Source: a virus
Taxonomy: Duplodnaviria > Heunggongvirae > Uroviricota > Caudoviricetes
Virus record (IMG/VR): IMGVR_UViG_2651869781_000018
DNA length: 33,021 nt
Strand: one strand, 5' to 3'
In this document: one piece after another, positions 1 to 30,126 of the stretch
How positions within the stretch are numbered: the first letter of the stretch is position 1
Layout of the letters: each line of letters begins with the position of its first letter
Made by a program: the position numbers and the translations under genes
Notes under the pieces: model-generated
What the model saw: the letters and a program-made list of their open reading frames with translations, nothing else
Database searches by the model: none
Told to the model about the DNA's origin: nothing

Positions 1-1005
1 TTAATCCCCCGTGGACACTGCGTGGACACTTACGCCACCTTTCAGCGGATTAAGGGCCACCGCATCCTGCAGGTAATCCGGTGCAAAATGCGCATATGCC
101 ATTGTTTGCTGAATGGTTGCGTGACCAAGAATCTTCTGAAGCGCAATAATGTTTCCTCCGTTCATCACAAAATGGCTGGCGAACGTATGCCGCAGCACAT
201 GTGCAGCCTGGCCTTTTGGTAAATCGGGCTTAACTCTTTTCAGCGCCAGGCAGAATTCCCGGTACTTCACCTCAAACAAGCCGCCTGTTTCTCTGGTTTT
301 GATCGCCTCACAAACTGCCTGCGAAATTGGCACTGTTCTCTTCCGGCCATTTTTGGTTTCAAGAAACGTTACACGGTTATGAACTATCTGTTCACCACGA
401 AGCTTACAAGCTTCACTCCAGCGCGCCCCTGTGCTTAAACACAAAAGCGCAACACGCCAGTAGTCGCCCTCCAGTGTATCGAGCAATAGCGCCACTTCCT
501 TCTGTGACAGGAACGCCATTTCTCGTGGAGATACATAAAGAATAGAAATTCCCCTTACTGGATGTTCTGCATCCCAAAGACCTATTTTTTTCAGCACGGT
601 AAACATTCCGGATAACCGATTCATGTACCTGTTAGCAGATGACGGTTTCAATCCATCAGCTATCTTTTGAGAACGCCACGCGATAATTTTCAGCTTATCA
701 AGATCCACAGCCTGCATATCAGCGCCAAGCTCATTGATTATGTTGCGCAGTTGTTTTCGGTCTTCTTCCGCCTTACGCCTGTGCTGGCCGTGATACATCC
801 ACCACAACTCAAGCAAATCATTTAGCGTTCGACGATCACGGTAGCCCTGTATATATTCCCGCTTTTCAGCGTTCGCCATGATGTAGCGTTCAGTGGCCAC
901 CGCTACCGATTTTTTGTCAAATACCTTACGCACGCGCTTTCCCTTGCGTCCGTTCGGCCTGATGTCCAGCAAATAACGACCATCTTCGAGCTTCTTAATC
1001 GACAT
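1..1005 (-). CDS. int: Tyrosine site-specific integrase, P2 Int type
   Basis: ORF 1..1020 minus strand; likely start MSIKK at 1005 with GGAGGG Shine-Dalgarno 7 nt upstream; C-terminal catalytic region contains R...HxxR...Y context (ARWSEA, VLRHTFASH, TMAYAHF). Stop codon is the first 3 nt of the window. Confidence 0.9.
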   Translation of the reverse strand: MSIKKLEDGRYLLDIRPNGRKGKRVRKVFDKKSVAVATERYIMANAEKREYIQGYRDRRTLNDLLELWWMYHGQHRRKAEEDRKQLRNIINELGADMQAVDLDKLKIIAWRSQKIADGLKPSSANRYMNRLSGMFTVLKKIGLWDAEHPVRGISILYVSPREMAFLSQKEVALLLDTLEGDYWRVALLCLSTGARWSEACKLRGEQIVHNRVTFLETKNGRKRTVPISQAVCEAIKTRETGGLFEVKYREFCLALKRVKPDLPKGQAAHVLRHTFASHFVMNGGNIIALQKILGHATIQQTMAYAHFAPDYLQDAVALNPLKGGVSVHAVSTGD

Positions 1006-1101
1006 TACGAAGCCCTCCAATGAACCGCTCTACAATTTCTCCAGCCTCTTTCCAGCAATAATCAGACCAGACAAAAAGCAGGTCTAACCAGTTTTCTGGC
1101 C

Positions 1102-1422
1102 TCAGCGGGATAATTTTTGGATTGTTTCGGTTGAAACGCGATCTCCCTCCGAATTGCAGGAACCATCAAGAGAGAGAGCCGGAGAAATTTGCCCGACCTC
1201 CGGCATCGTTTCATCTGTTGATAACCAATAAGCATACTTCTTAAATTTAGGGTGTTTCGTAACCTTAAGTAAGGCACCCTCTGTTACTTGCTTCCCCCTC
1301 ACCTCATAGTTAGTTACCGTCCCATAAGGCAGCCCAACACAATCCGCAAACTCCTGGCGGGTCATACCTTCTGCTTCACGAATCAGGCGAAATTTTTCAC
1401 CCATGCTTGACAAAGATGCCAT
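1102..1422 (-). CDS. C: Immunity repressor, P2 C-like (HTH)
   Basis: 106-aa product from MASLSS...; HTH segment MTRQEFADCVGLPYGTVTNYE and C-terminal YWL...GQISPAL resemble P2 C as remembered. Alternative upstream starts exist in the 1102..1476 ORF. Confidence 0.75.
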   Translation of the reverse strand: MASLSSMGEKFRLIREAEGMTRQEFADCVGLPYGTVTNYEVRGKQVTEGALLKVTKHPKFKKYAYWLSTDETMPEVGQISPALSLDGSCNSEGDRVSTETIQKLSR

Positions 1423-1464
1423 ATCGGGCATACCCTCCATCACAACATGCCACATCGGGCACAA
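1421..1464. promoter_or_regulatory. C/cox switch region with two direct repeats (ATATCGGGCATA and ACATCGGGCACA), candidate repressor operator half-sites
   Basis: Two ~11-bp direct repeats about 32 bp apart in the divergent C/cox intergenic region; P2-type repressors bind direct repeats. Promoter hexamers not assigned with confidence. Confidence 0.35.
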
Positions 1465-1535
1465 ACATAAAAACACTCAAATAAGCCGATATAAGCCATT
1501 TTGAGCCATTCGAACGAATTAGGGAGATTACCACA

Positions 1536-1823
1536 ATGAGCGAATCAGAGCTTGGGGGGTTCATTCAGGTAGCACCATATCCACTTGAAGCGGTGCCATA
1601 TCAACTATTCGCCAAGATGATCGGCCGCAAGGAATCCACAGTCAGAACCATGATTGACGCAGCAAAGCTACCAACAATTGACTTTGTGAAACCAGGTTCA
1701 GTAAAGACGCGTGCATCAGAAAACTGGGTATATCTGCCAGCATTTAACGAAGGCATGCGCAAAGCGTTTTTTGAGCAACCGAAAGAACGCCGCGACGCAT
1801 GGTTGTTGTGGCTGGGACTTTAG
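1536..1823 (+). CDS. cox: Cox-like excisionase / transcriptional switch protein
   Basis: 95 aa; motifs PYQLFAKMIG...TVRTMIDA.KLPTIDF...WVYLPA...W.LWLGL match P2 Cox as remembered; GGGAGA RBS; divergent from C. Confidence 0.7.
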   Translation: MSESELGGFIQVAPYPLEAVPYQLFAKMIGRKESTVRTMIDAAKLPTIDFVKPGSVKTRASENWVYLPAFNEGMRKAFFEQPKERRDAWLLWLGL

Positions 1824-1829
1824 TCATAA

Positions 1830-2036
1830 ATGACCAGCCATATCATCAGCGCCATTCTGACCCTTGTTTTTATTGAGATAGGCGTAATAGAGATCTATTT
1901 GTTTCGCAAGTTAACGGGACATAAAGAACGCTTTATTGAACTCAGCATTGAATATATCGCCGCTTATACCAAAGGACTTTTCCCGGCAGCTATTGGGGCG
2001 ATGTTGATAGCGTTTGTTATCTGGTTTATCGGGTGA
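1830..2036 (+). CDS. Hypothetical small membrane protein (68 aa, two hydrophobic segments)
   Basis: ORF immediately after cox; hydrophobic composition only. Confidence 0.35.
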   Translation: MTSHIISAILTLVFIEIGVIEIYLFRKLTGHKERFIELSIEYIAAYTKGLFPAAIGAMLIAFVIWFIG

Positions 2037-2288
2037 GAAACCTGACAACCCACAACTACTGCAATGAGGGTAATTATGTGTGGCATGGACAAATTGGACC
2101 TTATGTTAATTGTAATACTATCAATTAACTTCGGTTACCTCTTAAGCGGCGCAATTCTCATGTGCGGAGGCAAACGAAAATGAACCAGCAGTCCGCAAAA
2201 CGTGAAAACAATGCGATGCGATTTAATCGCAAATATTTTGAGTTCGGCCTCTATGCCGGAATAATTAAATCTGTACAGAGTCTTTAAC

Positions 2289-2630
2289 ATGAAACAGCAA
2301 CGTAATTCACGCTTTCGCAATGGTGCAGAACGCCACGCTAACCGTTTTGCTACCAGTGCATCACGCAGCAACATCCGCTACAGCCTGAGTGATACACACG
2401 CAACGCCGGATGGCTACCCAGTAAAACAAATCGGCGAGCATGCCTGGCTGATTGAGAAAGCTGGAATCGTGGTCCACAAATGCCCGCGCAATCCGTTTAC
2501 CGGAAACCGCATTTTTGCTCTGAGCAGCGGCGACAATCAGTTCGGGCAGGATTTCACATTATACGAAGCGCTTCGCACGGTTGATCGTCTGCTGCGTGGA
2601 CAGAGTTTTATTAAACAGGCTGATTTATAA
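2289..2630 (+). CDS. Hypothetical phage early protein (113 aa)
   Basis: ORF in early operon, co-directional with cox and A; no family recognised. Confidence 0.5.
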   Translation: MKQQRNSRFRNGAERHANRFATSASRSNIRYSLSDTHATPDGYPVKQIGEHAWLIEKAGIVVHKCPRNPFTGNRIFALSSGDNQFGQDFTLYEALRTVDRLLRGQSFIKQADL

Positions 2631-2640
2631 CAGGTGCTTT

Positions 2641-2928
2641 ATGACTAAAGACCATACTCAAGGTGTATTTATCCGCTTTATTGATTTTCGCGGTGAACTG
2701 TTATTACGCGCATCCGCTATTGATGGAGTGGCTCCGGCGGGGAAAAACGGAGCCGCCGAAGCCACTTACGTTTATCTGAACGGCACGCGACTGATCGTGG
2801 AACTTCCGTACCAGACCGTACGCGAAATCATTAGCGAAGCTGAAAAGGCTCGTCAGGTTAATGGCGATAAACCCTATATCGAAATTATCTGTATGGATTC
2901 AGAAACTGAAATTCAGAAAGCAGATTAA
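2641..2928 (+). CDS. Hypothetical phage early protein (95 aa)
   Basis: In-frame ATG at 2641 within ORF 2581..2928, preceded by AGGTG; no family recognised. Confidence 0.5.
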   Translation: MTKDHTQGVFIRFIDFRGELLLRASAIDGVAPAGKNGAAEATYVYLNGTRLIVELPYQTVREIISEAEKARQVNGDKPYIEIICMDSETEIQKAD

Positions 2929-2939
2929 AGGGCGTTGCG

Positions 2940-3182
2940 ATGGGCAAAGAATATAAAACTCTCATTAACAAAGCACTTGAGCGCTTTTATTTTCGCTTAA
3001 GTGCATCAGGCGCTCATGCTGAACGTGCGGCCCGTGACTCATTGACCAGAGCAATCCGAAGTCTGTATGACGTGGCTTTTTACGCTGATGATCTGGATGC
3101 ACTTAACGAACTTTCCGAGCTGATCTGTGCCGCAGAATGCGGGGAACATATTGAACCGTATGAGCTGGGGAATATCGCATGA
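2940..3182 (+). CDS. Hypothetical phage early protein (80 aa)
   Basis: Tightly packed ORF in early operon. Confidence 0.5.
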   Translation: MGKEYKTLINKALERFYFRLSASGAHAERAARDSLTRAIRSLYDVAFYADDLDALNELSELICAAECGEHIEPYELGNIA

Positions 3183-3292
3183 GTATATTTATCTCATGGC
3201 TTGTTCTGATTATTTCGGTGGCCTGCGCTATTGGGATTATGCGAATTATTCATTCAATAAAAAAGATTGAACGCTTTTTCACTGGCGAATAA
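3179..3292 (+). CDS. Possible small membrane peptide (37 aa, MSIFISWLVLIISVACAIGIMRIIHSIKKIERFFTGE)
   Basis: ATG overlaps the stop of the preceding gene (ATGA); single hydrophobic helix; below the ORF-track size cutoff, found by manual translation. Confidence 0.25.
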   Translation: MSIFISWLVLIISVACAIGIMRIIHSIKKIERFFTGE

Positions 3293-3378
3293 CAGAGCAA
3301 ATAAAACCACAGATTAAATAAGAAAATGTAAAAACAATCCGCATTCGCGGAGGTATTCGCACACGCCAAGGAGGCGTA

Positions 3379-4337: not shown

Positions 4338-7160
4338 ATGACGGCAGAGTACATCAGGGACTGGCAACAACCGCGCCACGCAGTGGGGCGTGAAGGAACG
4401 GGGATCCCCGCTCCTGAATCCGCGCTTTCCTCCTGGCTGGATGCCTACCGGGTAGAGAACGAGCGCCGCCAGGAAATGGCTGATGCGGCGTTCTCCGCCA
4501 CGCCACTGGGCAACCTGATTAATAAAAGCCTGGACGCACAGGAAAAACAGGACAAAACCATCACACTGGCAGGAGACGCCAGAAAACAGGCACGCGGCGC
4601 GGTGGATGAAGCCATGGCCTCGCTGCGCCTGCTGCCGTCCTATCTGCGCGATCCGCTTATTCGCCACCTCTCCTTCCTGCGCAAAAAACAGGAAGCCGAT
4701 CGCCGGAAAGGCAAAAAGAGCTGGCAGGCGGAACGCTATGCACGCGGAACCCTGCGCAAAATATTCGAACGTCTGGATCGCACTGACGGACACTGGCTGA
4801 CACCGGGTTATCGCTCCCTTGCCGGACGCGAACGCCTGGACGATTTGCTTTACCTGCCGCAGCTCAACAAACACCAGATACAGACGCTGGCCACCATGAC
4901 GGCGGCGATGTTCAGCAGCACCTTCGAAAAACTCTGCGATGGCTTTGGCGCGACCGATGGCGAACTGACCATGGATGTAACGCTGAAGGCGTATCAGATG
5001 CTGGCCCGCATGGCGTTACACCTGCACATCATGCCTCCACATTATGACGCACTGACAACAGATAAAGACCGGAGGAACGAACCGGACACGGAGCTGCTGC
5101 CGGGCGCAATCCTTCGCCTGACCTGTGCGGAATGGTGGAAACGCAAACTGTGGCTGTTACGTTGCGAGTGGAGAGAAGAACAACTCCGCGCCGCCTGTCT
5201 GGTTTCCAGAAAAACATCACCCTATCTGAGCCAGGACGCGTTAAGCGAGTTTCGCGCACAGCGCGAGAAAACACGCGATTTCCTGAAAAGTTTCATGCTG
5301 GAAAACGAAGACGGGTTCACGATTGATCTCGAGACAGTGTATTACGCGGGAGTAAGTAACCCGGTTCACCGTAAGGCAGAAATGATGGCCACCATGAAGG
5401 GGCTGGAACTTCTGGCCGAAGCCCGTGGCGACAAAGCGGTGTTTCTAACTGTCACCTGCCCGTCAAAATACCACGCCACAACAGAGAACGGTCATCCGAA
5501 TCCCAAATGGAACGGGGCCACCATGCGCGACTCCAGCGATTACCTGGTTAACACGTTTTTTGCAGCGGTCCGCAAGAAACTGAACCGCGACGGCCTGCGC
5601 TGGTATGGCATCCGCACGGTGGAGCCTCACCATGACGGCACCGTGCACTGGCATATGATGGTCTTTGCTCATCCGGAAGAAATCGACACCATTGTGTCCC
5701 ACACCCGCGATATTGCCATTCAGGAAGATCGTCACGAGCTGGGTGATGATATTACCCCACGCTTTAAGGCGGAGTACGTCGACGGCTCAAAAGGCACGCC
5801 AACCAGCTACATCGCCACCTACATCGGAAAGAACCTGGACAGCCGCGCCGTGGATGGCATCGACCCGAAAACGGGCAAGCCACGCGTTGACCACGAAACA
5901 GGTAAATCAATGGCCGAGAGCGTGGAGCGAGCCATCGGCTGGGCGCGCCTTCACCGGGTCCGCCAGTTCCAGTTCTTTGGCATCCCCTCCCGTCAGGTGT
6001 GGCGTGAACTCCGCCGCCTTGCCAGCCAGATGGCACGCAACCCGGAAGGCCCGCAACGGCTGAAGGATGACGCAATGGATGCGGTACTCGCTGCCGCTGA
6101 TGCCGGATGTTTTGCCACCTACATTGAAAAACAGGGTGGCGTACTTGTTCCGCGCAAGGACTACCTGATTCGCACAGCCTACGACCTCGCAGATGAGCTG
6201 AACGATTACGGCGAACAGAGTGTACAGATTTACGGGATCTGGTCGCCATTCATCGGGGAATCCTCCCGTGTGTGCACGCATCCGGATAACTGGAAGCTGG
6301 TAAGACGTAAACCGGAAGCGGAAGACAGCGCCCGCGAAAATGGTTTTGACCTTCAGGGCGGCCCTGCCGCCCCTTGGACTCGTGGCAATAACTGTCCCCG
6401 TGTACAGGAAACAGGCAACAACGGGACAGAACAGCCGGAAGAACGGCCAGCACCGTGGCCGCAGCTTCCTGACGGCGTTGAAGTAAATGAATGGATGCGC
6501 TCACTGAAACGGCACGAACGCCGGGCGCTGATGCGTTCGCTTCGTGACAAACAGGCAAAAAACAGCAGCGATGAAATGCAGAACTGGACACAGAGCCGCA
6601 AACAGCAGCGGCCTTTGCCTGATAACCACGAGTTACTCGCTAAAGAATGGCGGGAGTCTGCTGAATCTCTCGGCCTGCATATCGGTGAACAACAGATGCA
6701 GCACCTGTTACGGGGCGGCAGTCTGTACGTTGACGGCAGCATCATTGCACCGCAGGGATTTGAAATTGTACGCAAACCGGATACCCGCCCGGACAGCCGA
6801 ATCACGCAGCTCTGGCAGCGTCTGAGCCGTAATCATGGCGTAAGCAGCACGGAGATCCGCCATAACCCGGTCGCCAGCTATCTGGCACAGCTGGGGGCAT
6901 CAGACCCTGAAGCCGCCGCACGCCTGGCATCCACACTTCAGCAGGACCAGAACACCATGAAAACACCCGTTACCGTGCTTTCTGACATGCTGCGCGCCAT
7001 CCGCGACGCAGAGCACGCACAGAGAATCAGTGAAACCACTGAACGCGCCAGCCGCAAAGCAGACCTGCTGCGGGGTGGCCTGACCAGTGGAAACAAAAAA
7101 CAGACAGAAACGGGACTCACGAATCCCGTAAATGAGCAAAAAACGCGCAGCGATATATGA
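4338..7160 (+). CDS. A: Rolling-circle replication initiator endonuclease, P2 gpA family (HUH relaxase-like), 940 aa
   Basis: HUH metal-binding motif HWHMMVF and paired-tyrosine motif YIATYIGKN; position and size consistent with P2 A but about 180 aa longer than P2 A as remembered, with a charged, Q/R-rich C-terminal extension. Confidence 0.9.
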   Translation: MTAEYIRDWQQPRHAVGREGTGIPAPESALSSWLDAYRVENERRQEMADAAFSATPLGNLINKSLDAQEKQDKTITLAGDARKQARGAVDEAMASLRLLPSYLRDPLIRHLSFLRKKQEADRRKGKKSWQAERYARGTLRKIFERLDRTDGHWLTPGYRSLAGRERLDDLLYLPQLNKHQIQTLATMTAAMFSSTFEKLCDGFGATDGELTMDVTLKAYQMLARMALHLHIMPPHYDALTTDKDRRNEPDTELLPGAILRLTCAEWWKRKLWLLRCEWREEQLRAACLVSRKTSPYLSQDALSEFRAQREKTRDFLKSFMLENEDGFTIDLETVYYAGVSNPVHRKAEMMATMKGLELLAEARGDKAVFLTVTCPSKYHATTENGHPNPKWNGATMRDSSDYLVNTFFAAVRKKLNRDGLRWYGIRTVEPHHDGTVHWHMMVFAHPEEIDTIVSHTRDIAIQEDRHELGDDITPRFKAEYVDGSKGTPTSYIATYIGKNLDSRAVDGIDPKTGKPRVDHETGKSMAESVERAIGWARLHRVRQFQFFGIPSRQVWRELRRLASQMARNPEGPQRLKDDAMDAVLAAADAGCFATYIEKQGGVLVPRKDYLIRTAYDLADELNDYGEQSVQIYGIWSPFIGESSRVCTHPDNWKLVRRKPEAEDSARENGFDLQGGPAAPWTRGNNCPRVQETGNNGTEQPEERPAPWPQLPDGVEVNEWMRSLKRHERRALMRSLRDKQAKNSSDEMQNWTQSRKQQRPLPDNHELLAKEWRESAESLGLHIGEQQMQHLLRGGSLYVDGSIIAPQGFEIVRKPDTRPDSRITQLWQRLSRNHGVSSTEIRHNPVASYLAQLGASDPEAAARLASTLQQDQNTMKTPVTVLSDMLRAIRDAEHAQRISETTERASRKADLLRGGLTSGNKKQTETGLTNPVNEQKTRSDI

Positions 7161-7208
7161 AGCGCGCACAAAACAGGCAAAAACGGGATTTCAGAATCCC
7201 GTAAACGA
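7097..7208. repeat. Two ~39-bp direct repeats (about 7097..7135 and 7170..7208), each containing a hyphenated dyad ACGGGA-N8-TCCCGT, straddling the stop codon of A and lying just upstream of parM
   Basis: AAAACAGaCAgAAACGGGActcacGAATCCCGTAAAtGA versus AAAACAGgCAaAAACGGGAtttcaGAATCCCGTAAAcGA read directly from the sequence; 73-bp period. Confidence 0.6.
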
Positions 7209-7236
7209 TTAATTAATCAACATAAGGAAAACCGAC

Positions 7237-8196
7237 ATGAAAATTTACATCGACGACGGCTCCACCAACATCAAGCTGGCATGGACTGAGAACGGCGAAC
7301 GCCGCAACGCCATCAGCCCGAACAGCTTCAAGTCGGAATGGTCTGCGCCGTTCGGTGGCTCGCAGCCTGCTAACTACATGCTTGATGGCGTGCGCTATGG
7401 TTTTGATCCGGTCAGCGATCGCTTTGTCCAGACGACCGACACGCAATACCAGTACAGCGATGTGAATGTCATTGCCATTCATCACGCGCTGGTCAAATCA
7501 GACATCACGCCACAGGAAGTGGATGTGGTTGTTACCCTGCCACTGAGCGAATATTTCGACACAAACGCACAGCCGGACATGGCCAACATCAACCGCAAAA
7601 AAGCGAACGTCATGCGCCCGGTGGAGTACCAGAACGGCGAAGCATTCACTATCCGTAACGTACGGGTTATGCCTGAATCCATTCCGGCTGGCTTTAAAGC
7701 ACTGGCTGACATGAGTCCGTTTGAATCCCTGCTGATTGTGGATTTGGGCGGAACCACGCTGGATGTGGCAAAGGTTCAGGGGCAACTGGCAGGTATCAGC
7801 CAGGTGTTTTGCGATCCACACGTAGGCGTTTCTCTTATGGCCGATGCCGTACTGTCGGTGATGGCCACTAACGGTATGCGCACCAGTCACCACATCGCCA
7901 ATACCATTATCGAACATCGCCATAATGAAGCCTGGCTGCGCCAGCACATCCACAATGACGCGCATTACGCCAGCCTGATGGCGGTTATTCGTGAAAAGGA
8001 AGAAACACTGAAACAACGCGTGATCCGCGCGCTGGCGGTTTTTTCGGGTTACGGGCGGGTGATGGTTGTCGGTGGCGGGGCGGAGATTGTGGCACCCGCT
8101 ATCCGCGAAGCCTGCGGAGTTAATGCGACTTTCATCGCGGACGGGGTGCCACAGTTTGCTCTGGTTAATGGGCTGTACGCAATGGACAAGGAGTAA
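7237..8196 (+). CDS. parM: ParM/StbA-family actin-like segregation ATPase
   Basis: 319 aa; N-terminal phosphate-1 motif IYIDDGSTNIKLAW, then SPNSF, YSDVNVIAIHHAL, PESIPAG, LIVDLGGTTLDVA, VMVVGGGAE and FALVNGLY all align with R1 ParM (StbA) as remembered; RBS AAGGA upstream. Confidence 0.85.
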   Translation: MKIYIDDGSTNIKLAWTENGERRNAISPNSFKSEWSAPFGGSQPANYMLDGVRYGFDPVSDRFVQTTDTQYQYSDVNVIAIHHALVKSDITPQEVDVVVTLPLSEYFDTNAQPDMANINRKKANVMRPVEYQNGEAFTIRNVRVMPESIPAGFKALADMSPFESLLIVDLGGTTLDVAKVQGQLAGISQVFCDPHVGVSLMADAVLSVMATNGMRTSHHIANTIIEHRHNEAWLRQHIHNDAHYASLMAVIREKEETLKQRVIRALAVFSGYGRVMVVGGGAEIVAPAIREACGVNATFIADGVPQFALVNGLYAMDKE

Positions 8197-8200
8197 ACCA

Positions 8201-8512
8201 ATGACGACACCAACCAGACGGATAAGTTTCTATCTGAAGCCCGCCGCCGTCAAGAACGAAGGAGAAGCATGCGCCTGGCTGGACAGCCTTACACCAGAAG
8301 CCCGCAAAAGCGGCCAACGCGTGGCTTTTCTGGCCGGGCTGGCACTTCTGAAGACGAATCCGGCAGAGGCTTACCGACTGGCCGCATGGGCTGATGATGA
8401 GATGTTACCTGTGACACAAATCAGCTCAAAAAAGTTTGAAGCACAGTCTGCACCAGTGGCTAAGATAACCAGCCAGATGGCTGGGAATATCCGGGCGTTA
8501 TTTCCTGAGTAA
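8201..8512 (+). CDS. parR: ParR-like ribbon-helix-helix centromere-binding adaptor
   Basis: 103 aa starting MTTPTRRISFYLKP (ATG 5 nt after the parM stop); ISFYLKP / DSLTPEARKS / AFLAGLAL resemble R1 ParR N-terminal RHH region as remembered. Confidence 0.7.
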   Translation: MTTPTRRISFYLKPAAVKNEGEACAWLDSLTPEARKSGQRVAFLAGLALLKTNPAEAYRLAAWADDEMLPVTQISSKKFEAQSAPVAKITSQMAGNIRALFPE

Positions 8513-8640
8513 AAGCATCTGCGCGAAAAATGCTCACGTTTATAGAGACAGTATCATTCCATTTGGCACACTTACTTCAATAATCGATCTGTTAAACAAA
8601 TAGATTGTCTATTATCTATCGATTAAAACGATCAATTATC

Positions 8641-8668
8641 TTGACAGTAATGTGCCTTTTTGTAAGAT
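8641..8668 (+). promoter_or_regulatory. Candidate sigma70 promoter (TTGACA, 16-bp spacer, TAAGAT), preceded by operator-like dyads (8583..8640) and followed by a dyad overlapping the predicted start site (8673..8702)
   Basis: Perfect -35 hexamer and a 4/6 -10 hexamer at correct spacing read from sequence; flanking ATAGA-N3-TCTAT and CGCAtTGT-N10-ATAATTGCG dyads. Confidence 0.4.
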
Positions 8669-8710
8669 CGTTCGCATTGTGAGCGACAAGATAATTGCGC
8701 GGCATTGTCC

Positions 8711-8859
8711 ATGCAAAACGCCCCAATAGCAGCAACTATTGGGGCGTAAAACTCGGTCGGACTCACTTAACCTGATATGCGTGCCTTCCGAAGTAAATCA
8801 AAATGTGCGTCGTATATTTTATTGCTTACACGCACCTCTGTAAAGGCACGCATATTTTT
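8711..8859 (+). ncRNA. Structured leader or small RNA candidate: 13-codon mini-ORF wrapped in a perfect 12-bp hairpin (8718..8747), then a long nested stem-loop (8777..8853) ending in TTTTT immediately before the RBS of the 89-aa gene
   Basis: Inverted repeats ACGCCCCAATAG/CTATTGGGGCGT and ATGCGTGCCTT/AAGGCACGCAT with inner GTGCGT/ACGCAC, followed by a T5 run; seen in sequence. The function (sRNA, attenuator or terminator of parMR) cannot be decided from sequence. Confidence 0.3.
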
Positions 8860-8876
8860 CCTATGAGGTAAATAAA

Positions 8877-9146
8877 GTGCGGGCTAAAACAGGTATTTGC
8901 AAGAACCCTCATCGTTATAATCCAACATTTCTGTCTCTCCCTGAATATCAAGGACAAGAAGGTCGGCACAAATGCGCTGCCTGTGCTTTTGAGCTAGGCA
9001 TAAAAGATGCGCTTGAAGGACGCGCTATGGCTCAGAATGATTTAGTTTTAGCTAACATTCCGTTTAGCCAGGCTGGAACTGTAAGGCACAGAGATGCCTA
9101 TGAAGCATATGTTCGTGGTTGGCGATTAATAAACAGCAACAATTGA
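8877..9146 (+). CDS. Hypothetical 89-aa protein in the A-to-cos cargo slot (GTG start)
   Basis: GTG start with GAGGT Shine-Dalgarno 7 nt upstream; followed by a canonical hairpin plus T-run terminator; no family recognised. Confidence 0.55.
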   Translation: MRAKTGICKNPHRYNPTFLSLPEYQGQEGRHKCAACAFELGIKDALEGRAMAQNDLVLANIPFSQAGTVRHRDAYEAYVRGWRLINSNN

Positions 9147-9149
9147 TAC

Positions 9150-9178
9150 TTTTGAAGCGCCGATAAGGCGCTTTTTTT
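9150..9178 (+). terminator. Rho-independent terminator (GAAGCGCC-GATA-AGGCGCTT followed by TTTTTTT)
   Basis: GC-rich perfect stem and T7 tract directly after the 89-aa ORF stop. Confidence 0.65.
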
Positions 9179-9179
9179 G

Positions 9180-9632
9180 TTTGCACGATAGTGCACAAGT
9201 TTGCACAATTTTTTTGAACGACTTTTTGTACTTCCGGCCCGCGTGGTGGCTGGATCCGTCAAGGATCCGTACGTGCACAAAAAAACGCGTTTTTTCTGCG
9301 CGCAGGTGACGGGGGAACAGCCCGCGTTTCAGGGGGTAAATAGCATTCCCTGAACGATGTCGCAGAGATACAACAGAATGGCCATATTTCTCACGCTGAG
9401 CATGAAAAAGACGTGAGAGCTTTTGATTTGATGGGGTGAAAGGTAAGGCCGTCAAAATCGCACTGAGACGGCGAGAACATGCAGTCAACGCGGTGGGATT
9501 GCGTAAGAGTCTGACTGTCGATGATGGCAATCAGCAGGAAAGCGTCGTGAAATTATCTGATTGATACAGGAGCTGGAGAGTCGGGGCATAAATTTTTTAT
9601 GCCCCGGCGAAGCAGCAGACAAGCGAAGCGCG
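9180..9632. other. Non-coding region expected to contain cos (the packaging site), by synteny between the A-side cargo and the 3' end of portal gene Q; exact cohesive-end site not assigned
   Basis: Position equivalent to P2 cos; contains TGCAC-rich direct/inverted repeats (9181..9215), the palindrome AAAAAACGCGTTTTTT (about 9283..9298), a G-rich 19-mer GGTGACGGGGGAACAGCCC (about 9307..9325) with partial resemblance to remembered P2/186 cohesive ends, and a hairpin CGGGGCAT..ATGCCCCG (about 9582..9606) downstream of Q. Confidence 0.3.
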
Positions 9633-10679
9633 TCAGGATGTGGGCTGGGTGTCTAACAGTGCGTAAGGGTTAAAGCGGATCACCTCTTCGCCAAGCCAGT
9701 CATTGATGTGCTTCATGGCCTCCATGACGGGCATCAGCTCGTTAATTGCGTAAACCCGCGCGGCCTTCTCCACATCACCAAACGCACTTTTTTCGCCCGG
9801 CATTGCCCCCATCAGTTGCGGCGGAACGCGGTGCGCAGCCAGCACATCATCACGGGATGCCGCCTTAACATTCATGAACTCATCCTTTGCGGTGATCTGC
9901 TGGAACGGCAAAATTTGCACCCCCTCTTTGCCCCCGTTGGGCGCATGAATGAGCACGTTTTTAAACGCACCACCACCACGTGCCCCCTGTAGCGTTTCTT
10001 TCAGGGAGTCCATGCTTTCGCGGTTTACCTGCGCTGCACCGATGTAGATGATGCACCCGGCGTGGGATCCGTTGTCGTAATACAGTTTTCTGAACATGTC
10101 CGCCGAATGAGACAGGCTGGCCGAGAGTAATGCGCCAAGATATTCCGGCATGCCGTAGATTTCCTGGTTAATATCCGGATTCATCAGGTGGCACACTTTG
10201 CCAGGGCGAAACTGGAACGCGTCCTTGCCATCCTGCACATACCACCATGATTCAAGATCGCTTCCGCGTCGCATGTATTTCGCCAGGGCGTGCCGTAATT
10301 TAAGCGGTTCACCGAGCATATTGCTTCGAAGCTCAAGGAATGCGTTACCGAACACAAACCAGTCCAGCGCCAGCACCGAGAAATCCTGCCGGGAAAGCAG
10401 CGGGTGCGGAATATAGCAACCGAGCAATACATTGCGCTTAAAGTAAAGCGCAGACTGATGCCAGGACGTTTGCCGGGCAGCTCTTGCCAGACCGTACCAG
10501 TCCACCGGGGTTTCATACCACCGCCCGTTATCAGCACAGTACATATTGTCCAGCAGGTCATGCCCGGTCAGGCGATAAGGACCATCAAATGTGAATGCAC
10601 TGAGCGATGATTCTTTCCTGAGCGCATCAGCGAGATCAATGCGTGAACTCATGCGCACTTTTTTATTTTTTCTGCTCAT
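9633..10679 (-). CDS. Q: Portal protein (capsid portal vertex), P2 gpQ-like
   Basis: 348 aa; extensive motif match to P2 Q as remembered (NGRWYE, FVFGNAFLE, LMNPDINQE, GMPEYL, KLYYDNG.HAG, HRVPPQLMG, WLG.EVIRF). Confidence 0.9.
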   Translation of the reverse strand: MSRKNKKVRMSSRIDLADALRKESSLSAFTFDGPYRLTGHDLLDNMYCADNGRWYETPVDWYGLARAARQTSWHQSALYFKRNVLLGCYIPHPLLSRQDFSVLALDWFVFGNAFLELRSNMLGEPLKLRHALAKYMRRGSDLESWWYVQDGKDAFQFRPGKVCHLMNPDINQEIYGMPEYLGALLSASLSHSADMFRKLYYDNGSHAGCIIYIGAAQVNRESMDSLKETLQGARGGGAFKNVLIHAPNGGKEGVQILPFQQITAKDEFMNVKAASRDDVLAAHRVPPQLMGAMPGEKSAFGDVEKAARVYAINELMPVMEAMKHINDWLGEEVIRFNPYALLDTQPTS

Positions 10680-29613: not shown

Positions 29614-30126
29614 TCAGCCAAGCCCAAGCGCGGAACGGATGCGATCGGGCACAATGTCCTTGCCGTCCTTCCGGTAAATGAAGTTCAGCAGGTCAATCTC
29701 CCACAACGGACGATCGTTAACACTCAGCTTGTAGTAGGTGTTTTTAATGGCGTAAGTGTGTGATGTGGCTTCGCCCTGTTTGGCTTCCCCCATATCAATT
29801 TCCGTCACACGTCCGCGCATTTCGACTTCATACAGGTCGCTTTCTGCATCGGTGTAGTATTCACCCGCAAAACGCAGCAGCGTGCCGTCAATCGTGCCGC
29901 CATACTTAAGGAACAGCGCACGAACTGCGCCCCCCATGACAAAGCTCGCATCAAGCGCGGAGTCGTCCAGACCGAGATCAATACTTACCGCCCCCATCAT
30001 GCCACCACCCCGATAGCTGTCGGTTTTGCGCGTCAGTTTGGGCAGAGTGACGGACGTCACCTTACCCACTTCGTTTTCACCATCCACAAACAGCGTAAAA
30101 AAGCGAAGATGTTTTGGCACAGCCAT
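29614..30126 (-). CDS. FII: Tail tube protein FII
   Basis: 170 aa; between sheath and E on the same strand. Confidence 0.85.
   Translation of the reverse strand: MAVPKHLRFFTLFVDGENEVGKVTSVTLPKLTRKTDSYRGGGMMGAVSIDLGLDDSALDASFVMGGAVRALFLKYGGTIDGTLLRFAGEYYTDAESDLYEVEMRGRVTEIDMGEAKQGEATSHTYAIKNTYYKLSVNDRPLWEIDLLNFIYRKDGKDIVPDRIRSALGLG

Follow-up and report, generated by a model that had tools for sequence, protein, structure and literature searches.

We examined the junction between the replication gene A and the partition genes parM and parR in a P88-like (Xuanwuvirus, Peduoviridae) E. coli prophage of the P2 family, using a 33,021-nucleotide stretch of viral DNA (IMG/VR record IMGVR_UViG_2651869781_000018) that is treated here at its full length and called the window. 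Two palindrome-bearing direct repeats at this junction form one module with parM and parR (together, parMR), and we lean towards reading them as the central part of parC, the centromere that would act in cis for a self-contained type II (ParM/ParR) cassette. The cassette as such is not new, being recorded both in annotation and in PMC9122126, and our search of the literature found no paper describing its cis site.

Two palindromic repeats at the junction of gene A and parM

A repeat search returned a single family in the region, consisting of two direct copies of 42 nt at 7094-7135 and 7167-7208 that are 81% identical and start 73 bp apart. These are the same feature as the two near-identical 39-bp repeats that an earlier sequence-only reading of this DNA had described at 7097-7208. 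The ACGGGA-N8-TCCCGT dyad which that reading had seen in each repeat is also present, at 7110-7129 and 7183-7202, and these are its only exact copies in the window. With at most one mismatch allowed, the motif occurs three times in 33 kb, compared to 0.05 occurrences expected from shuffled sequences, and both exact occurrences are those in the repeats. Among relatives, the dyad usually reads ACGGGATT-N4-AATCCCGT, and the portion that is kept as far as Hafnia is GGGATT-N4-AATCCC. The region contains the following features, in a stretch whose A content is 45% across 7085-7236:

7091-7236, plus strand: candidate parC region as a whole, A-rich (45% A) and of non-coding type, extending from where A natively ends up to the start codon of parM and forming the left end of the parMR module
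7094-7135, plus strand: direct repeat 1, 42 nt, which formally coincides with the final codons of the A open reading frame (ORF)
7110-7129, no strand assigned: palindrome 1, ACGGGACT-CACG-AATCCCGT, with the core GGGAyT-N4-AATCCC, of which 11 of 12 positions are identical in Hafnia
7144-7166, no strand assigned: GC-rich inverted repeat CGCGC-N13-GCGCG, between the repeats and spanning the A stop codon (7158-7160)
7167-7208, plus strand: direct repeat 2, 42 nt, intergenic, 86% identical to Hafnia
7183-7202, no strand assigned: palindrome 2, ACGGGATT-TCAG-AATCCCGT, with all 12 core positions identical in Hafnia
7207-7218, no strand assigned: perfect 12-bp palindrome GATTAATTAATC, 20 bp past palindrome 2 and just upstream of the parM ribosome-binding site

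Repeat 1 lies formally within the last 22 codons of the A ORF (4338-7160), where it had been placed from sequence inspection, and repeat 2 lies within the 76-bp spacer between A and parM. The tail of A that covers repeat 1 is without constraint as a protein sequence. Of the 103 distinct upstream haplotypes that we collected from relatives, about a dozen have this tail frameshifted or cut short by indels in A-runs, and the Hafnia A ORF stops within palindrome 1. In an E. coli prophage that carries other cargo (L002, see below), A ends in GNK* at the equivalent of window position 7099, and the window A thus has a tail of roughly 20 codons that extends into repeat 1. Annotators thus have grounds for not regarding what these final ~20 codons encode as meaningful protein.

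Both copies of the repeat are present in 99 of the 103 haplotypes, with a spacing of 73 bp in 96 of these, 72 bp in two and 74 bp in one. Within each palindrome, the inner GGGA/TCCC is nearly invariant, outer stem positions mutate without compensation, and the 4-nt centres are far more variable than the arms (diversity, pi, of 0.11-0.25). Conservation within the region is lowest between the repeats; the GC-rich inverted repeat located there (7144-7166) is paired in 95% of cells, shows no compensatory change and is the region's most variable part. The 12-bp palindrome GATTAATTAATC has GATT-N4-AATC in common with the repeat cores and is partly kept in Hafnia, and it may be a third, weaker site. 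It is changed on both sides to GGTTAATTAACC in four haplotypes and on one side in three, the both-sides change being the only compensatory-looking change in the whole region.

A comparison over a longer distance is provided by Hafnia. Across GTDB genomes and plasmids, ParM identity is either at least 97% or at most 52%, with no intermediates, and the Hafnia module (ParM identical at 296 of 319 residues, 93%) is the most distant informative one. Between the window and Hafnia, 7091-7236 is 80% identical, whereas identity at third codon positions is 70% in parM, 56% in parR and 53% in A. The GGGATT/AATCCC cores are identical at 23 of 24 bases, the 73-bp spacing is retained, and each repeat keeps its own diagnostic flank. 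Since both copies, their individual differences and their spacing are kept between E. coli and Hafnia, and are conserved beyond synonymous sites, the duplication is old and maintained.

The repeats are inherited with parM and parR

The cassette is located in the gpA-gpQ cargo hotspot of P2-like phages, where a putative plasmid partitioning system is found in about a fourth of these phages (Rousset et al. 2022, PMC9122126). The A-repeat-parM junction is present in 1299 of 5426 complete E. coli genomes. The genes and other features around the repeats are:

4338-7160, plus strand: replication gene A, 940 aa, Pfam Phage_GPA (5.8e-132), 31% identical to P2 A
6359-6395, plus strand: homologue of the P2 origin nick region, GCGGCCCTGCCGCCCCTTGGACTCGTGGCAATAACTGT, matching P2 at about 30 of 38 positions
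7237-8196, plus strand: parM, actin-like segregation ATPase, 319 aa, Pfam StbA_N (9.7e-81) and ParM_N (3e-68)
8201-8512, plus strand: parR/stbB, centromere-binding adaptor, 103 aa, Pfam PF10784 (2.4e-23)
8514-8534, plus strand: short hairpin directly past the stop codon of parR, approximately where the shared module ends on the right
9633-10679, minus strand: portal gene

The Pfam matches of both genes bear out the ParM-like and ParR-like neighbours that had been proposed from the sequence. The sequence-only reading had also suggested asking whether the repeats occur in P2-like phages that lack parMR and whether, in alignments of related prophages, they track with parMR or with A. Both comparisons favour parC. 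The repeat motif is absent from P2, and the palindromes are absent from two E. coli prophages (L002 and L003) in which a closely related A is followed by other cargo, namely a minus-strand KAP NTPase in L002 and other minus-strand genes in L003; homology to the window ends at about 7113 and 7069, respectively. In two further loci (L084 and L145), the same two repeats and parMR stand after a different gene, a 155-codon ORF that follows a 783-aa A. DNA identity to the window is about 50% at first and rises there to 94% or more at about 7096-7110, which is the left edge of the module. The repeats thus track with parMR and not with A, and in L084 and L145 the two have moved together behind another gene.

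When IMG/VR was scanned for the exact motif, it stood just upstream of parM at all 77 loci where the contig permitted the check, and the palindrome pair, sought in any other viral setting, turned up only in P88-like contigs. Three records (P0031, P0028 and a Shigella record) were uninformative, with their upstream region either cut off or degraded by insertion sequences (IS). On the downstream side, homology among the window, P88, Cronobacter and Hafnia fades within ~20-30 bp past the parR stop codon, and each of them has a hairpin at this place. The module consists of the repeats, parM, parR and a short hairpin, and the repeats are its only substantial non-coding DNA.

Two of these comparison loci have features of their own. 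L002 (3385-3450), a prophage of E. coli APEC E12053, has a P88-type A and then the minus-strand KAP-family P-loop NTPase in place of parMR. Although parMR is lost, an apparent decayed relic of one repeat stands right after the A stop codon (AAACGG-AGTTTGAAAATC--AAATGA), which suggests that cargo was replaced downstream of a repeat. The 155-codon ORF, which is Cys-rich (L084 2457-2924, and L145), enters repeat 1 in the frame that A uses in the window and ends at the same TGA.

Alternative roles for the palindromes

The main rival to a parC role is that the palindromes are terminator-like hairpins of the minus strand, that is, intrinsic terminators or insulators against leftward transcription from the hotspot or the late genes that would run antisense into A and the early operon. 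We consider this unlikely. On the minus strand, both palindromes form an 8-bp hairpin followed by a T-run and are called by a pattern scan (ACGGGATTCTGAAATCCCGT TTTTGCCTGT and ACGGGATTCGTGAGTCCCGT TTCTGTCTGT), with hairpin energies of about -10 kcal/mol, and the A-runs that correspond to the minus-strand T-runs are conserved in Hafnia. The cargo beside A is leftward in P2, L002 and L003, so a junction terminator is plausible in this lineage. However, parM and parR lie on the plus strand, there is no minus-strand gene or promoter-like site within 7203-8700, and the sole promoter-like site on that strand (8844-8816) is followed by a hairpin and T-run of its own at 8747-8718. The hairpins accompany the plus-strand parMR cassette rather than leftward cargo, and their fold z-scores are weaker on the minus strand (-1.8 and -2.7) than on the plus strand (-3.4 and -3.9). 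Neither stem contains a compensatory change, as outer positions mutate freely while GGGA/TCCC is fixed, and a strict 73-bp spacing has no role in termination. On the plus strand, neither hairpin is followed by a T-run, and the earlier suggestion that the repeats terminate A transcription is not supported.

We give similarly little credence to the possibility that cargo exchange at the edge of the hotspot left the repeats behind as a duplication, or that they serve a protein other than ParR (a host or phage regulator), with no centromere role. The native 3' end of A overlaps with the left half of repeat 1 (GGGAACAAATAATCAAAAGAAACGG in L002), the module junctions fall within repeat 1, and variants that lack repeat 1 exist. 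P2 hotspots are also known to recombine intensely, by mechanisms that are unknown (PMC13586616). Set against these points are the maintenance of both copies, their differences and their spacing from E. coli to Hafnia at a conservation above that of synonymous sites, and the fact that the motif occurs nowhere else in the phage. A scar or another regulator's site would also leave the intact ParMR cassette without the cis site that it needs, as the module offers no other.

It is improbable that the hairpins work in the plus-strand message of A and parM rather than as DNA sites; they would then stabilise the mRNA between its cistrons, serve as a processing site or form the 5' stem-loop of a parM transcript. 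With no terminator between A and parM, the hairpins would be transcribed; their plus-strand folds beat shuffled sequences (z of -3.9 and -3.4), and all variation in hairpin 2 keeps plus-strand pairing through G-U (28 cells). In hairpin 1, by contrast, 37 of 360 cells carry variation that disrupts plus-strand pairing, GGGACT of the window itself among them. The strand-specific G-U pattern is uninformative, with hairpin 2 favouring the plus strand and hairpin 1 the minus strand. Covariation was sought in both repeat hairpins, and neither contains a both-sides change. An Rfam scan of 6500-9700 (E<=1) matched no family at the repeats, and ribosomes translating the A tail in E. coli would unfold hairpin 1. 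The conserved 73-bp spacing and the fixed GGGA/TCCC point to sequence recognition over pairing.

The idea that the repeats are part of a P2-type replication origin used by the A protein, which the sequence-only reading had offered as its other explanation, fails and is left with next to no probability: the 3' part of A is indeed where P2-type origins are found, and the A ORF includes repeat 1, but the A-dependent nick annotated in the P2 record (rep_origin at 29892, inside gene A; GCCGCGCCTCGG/AGTCCTGTCAATAACTGT), across which the A proteins of the window and P2 align, has its homologue at 6359-6395, about 730 bp upstream of the repeats, which have no nick-site homology and are not inherited with A, being absent from P2 itself and from related A genes with other cargo and separated from A by the 155-codon ORF in L084.

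Downstream of the module, a promoter-like sequence on the plus strand (TTGACA-16-TAAGAT, 8641-8668) faces the minus-strand promoter-like sequence TTTACA-17-TAAAAT at 8844-8816. The hairpin at 8718-8747, which is followed by TTTTG on the minus strand, has weak Rfam matches to ctRNA_pGA1 and sar (E 0.26-0.37). An 89-aa Cys-rich ORF (8877-9146) and a terminator (9154-9174) come next, and the cargo at this place differs from that of P88. The facing promoter-like sites and the hairpin suggest an antisense RNA of ~95 nt over the leader of the Cys-rich ORF.

A candidate type II centromere

As far as their sequences tell, ParM and ParR are both intact and belong to the R1 family. The window ParM matches R1 ParM chains in the PDB with an E of 7.7e-92 over residues 1-316, and ParR is 33% identical to the R1-type StbB over residues 1-61. 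Diversity is far higher in parR than in parM (pi of 0.156 vs 0.019), and the middle or linker part of ParR is hypervariable. At loci L013-L092, at least two strongly diverged allele classes of parR stand beside an almost invariant parM. Residues 6-14 of ParR (RRISFYLKP) are invariant across the diverged alleles and are presumed, from the family, to be the DNA-reading strand of a ribbon-helix-helix protein. In the C-terminal NI(R/Q)ALFPE motif, N96, I97, F101 and P102 are invariant, and the motif resembles the ParR C-termini of IncK (NIKNLFPDDD) and IncL/M (NVQHLFPDDD). An AlphaFold2 model of the ParR monomer, of low confidence (predicted local distance difference test, pLDDT, 55.7), has helices at 20-29, 32-52 and 54-61 and leaves residues 1-17 unstructured, and the strand may perhaps form only in the dimer. 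An invariant reading head and a conserved DNA motif would fit a cognate protein-site pair.

We infer the following scheme for ParR binding, its stoichiometry and segrosome formation. ParR dimers, presumably ribbon-helix-helix, would occupy the half-sites GGGATT and AATCCC of each palindrome. The geometry suits this arrangement: half-site centres 10 bp apart would give a dimer of dimers on each palindrome, and a distance of 73 bp, or about seven helical turns, would place both palindromes on the same face of the helix. Wrapping of the ~145-bp region into a segrosome may be helped by phased A-tracts and by AAAC(A/G)(G/C) motifs that precede and separate the palindromes, and the conserved C-terminal tail of ParR (NIxALFPE) would capture growing ParM filaments, so that sister phage circles are pushed apart. 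As no promoter of its own is detectable and no plus-strand terminator lies between A and parM, the cassette is probably transcribed with the early operon, that is, while the phage genome is extrachromosomal.

The locus resembles known type II loci in several respects. ParM is recognised by Pfam and by comparison with R1 structures, parR is directly downstream, and the repeats immediately upstream of parM are conserved, linked to the module and candidate ParR sites. The parC of R1/R100 (PF10784 family) shares with the window the same protein families and a cis region of ~150 bp directly upstream of parM. In both the R1-type plasmid that we compared (L094) and the window, this region is A-rich on the coding strand, has AAAAC-type motifs at a 10-11 bp period, a two-part layout and a similar CATAAGGA ribosome-binding region. 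However, R1 parC comprises 5+5 tandem direct iterons of 11 bp that flank a clear promoter, TTGACT-16-TAAACT (PMC5016525), whereas the window has a pair of 42-bp units that each contain a palindrome of 16-20 bp, and it lacks a recognisable promoter. An alignment shows only an A-rich compositional similarity, and direct homology to R1 parC was rejected on this ground. L094 contains at about 620-668 a 9-bp dyad, AAATGGGGT-N14-ACCCCATTT, over the -10 and start region, which loosely resembles the window's AAACGGGATT...AATCCCGTAAA. If the strand register of ParR is assumed to be that of other ribbon-helix-helix proteins, the four DNA-facing residues, by their position in the alignment with R1-type StbB, would all differ between the window (T5/R7/S9/Y11) and R1 (R5/T7/A9/K11), and specificity would then differ. 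The closest plasmid relatives of this ParM are about 52% identical and have other iteron arrays, flanking TTGACA...TATAAT promoters.

Type II centromeres vary widely, including two 10-bp direct repeats in pB171 (PMC9426499) and 20-bp repeats in pSK41 (PMC5016525). According to the account in PMC9426499 that cites Ringgaard 2007, parC1 of the pB171 par1 locus is a type II centromere with, like the candidate here, only two repeats upstream of parM, although its repeats are 10-bp direct ones. The pB171 ParR was not retained as a direct homologue, as the window ParR has no PDB match at E<=1. In pSK41, the 20-bp unit of parC is similar in that it fits two ribbon-helix-helix dimers one helical turn apart (PMC5016525), but the pSK41 units are contiguous tandem direct repeats on a Gram-positive plasmid, while those of the window are two palindromic units 73 bp apart.

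Several observations weigh against a centromere role. The layout is not the tandem iteron array seen in R1 or in the closest plasmid relatives: two tandem sets of 11-bp iterons flanking a parMR promoter, with ParR autoregulation, are not found here. Characterised ParR proteins bind direct repeats (PMC9426499), and the conserved cores here are palindromes. The sequence-only reading had proposed an operator in the parM promoter; we detected no sigma-70-like promoter in 6700-8640 and, by eye or by scan, no consistent -35/-10 pair that E. coli and Hafnia share, and conservation falls to its minimum in the sequence separating the repeats. On the minus strand, each palindrome with its T-run matches the pattern of an intrinsic terminator. 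At the level of E. coli diversity, the palindrome arms (pi 0.055) are no more conserved than synonymous sites (0.046-0.059). A single copy of the repeat is present in two haplotypes, in L043 through a 73-bp deletion and in L121, which is a prophage disrupted by IS66. An IS66-family element (540-3300) lies in L121 between a truncated A and palindrome 2; it removed repeat 1, parM is also disrupted, and the locus was rejected as a new context for the repeats. Finally, the periodicity of A-tracts at ~10-10.5 bp is only weakly above that of shuffled sequences (p about 0.02-0.05), and the AAAC(A/G)(G/C) motif, which occurs five times (7098, 7108, 7141, 7171 and 7181, with spacings of 10, 33, 30 and 10 bp) against 0.3 expected, was defined only after the region had been inspected, so that its count is post hoc.

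A stronger proposal is that the palindrome pair is a working minimal centromere and that P88-like phages of the P2 family undergo active partition while they are circular episomes, or even live on as phage-plasmids; this we regard as doubtful. One PLSDB record touches this question. NZ_CP148288.1 (L224), a circular 'plasmid' record of 34,461 bp from E. coli Z1323PEC0009, is a complete P88-like phage genome with A-parM-parR, and it could represent an episomal state or merely excised phage DNA. Six records among 72,556 plasmids have the junction, and no other of them is a circle of phage size, which speaks against a stable plasmid lifestyle.

If this stronger proposal is true, partition would act between infection or excision and integration, in a group of phages that roughly a quarter of complete E. 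coli genomes contain. A pair of ParR tetramer sites separated by seven helical turns, with no iteron array or promoter of its own and with expression tied to the early operon, would then constitute a new design of type II segrosome. A concrete candidate centromere of ~145 bp with two defined palindromes makes the partition idea directly testable, and if ParR reads the palindrome pair, the known range of type II centromere architectures would be widened.

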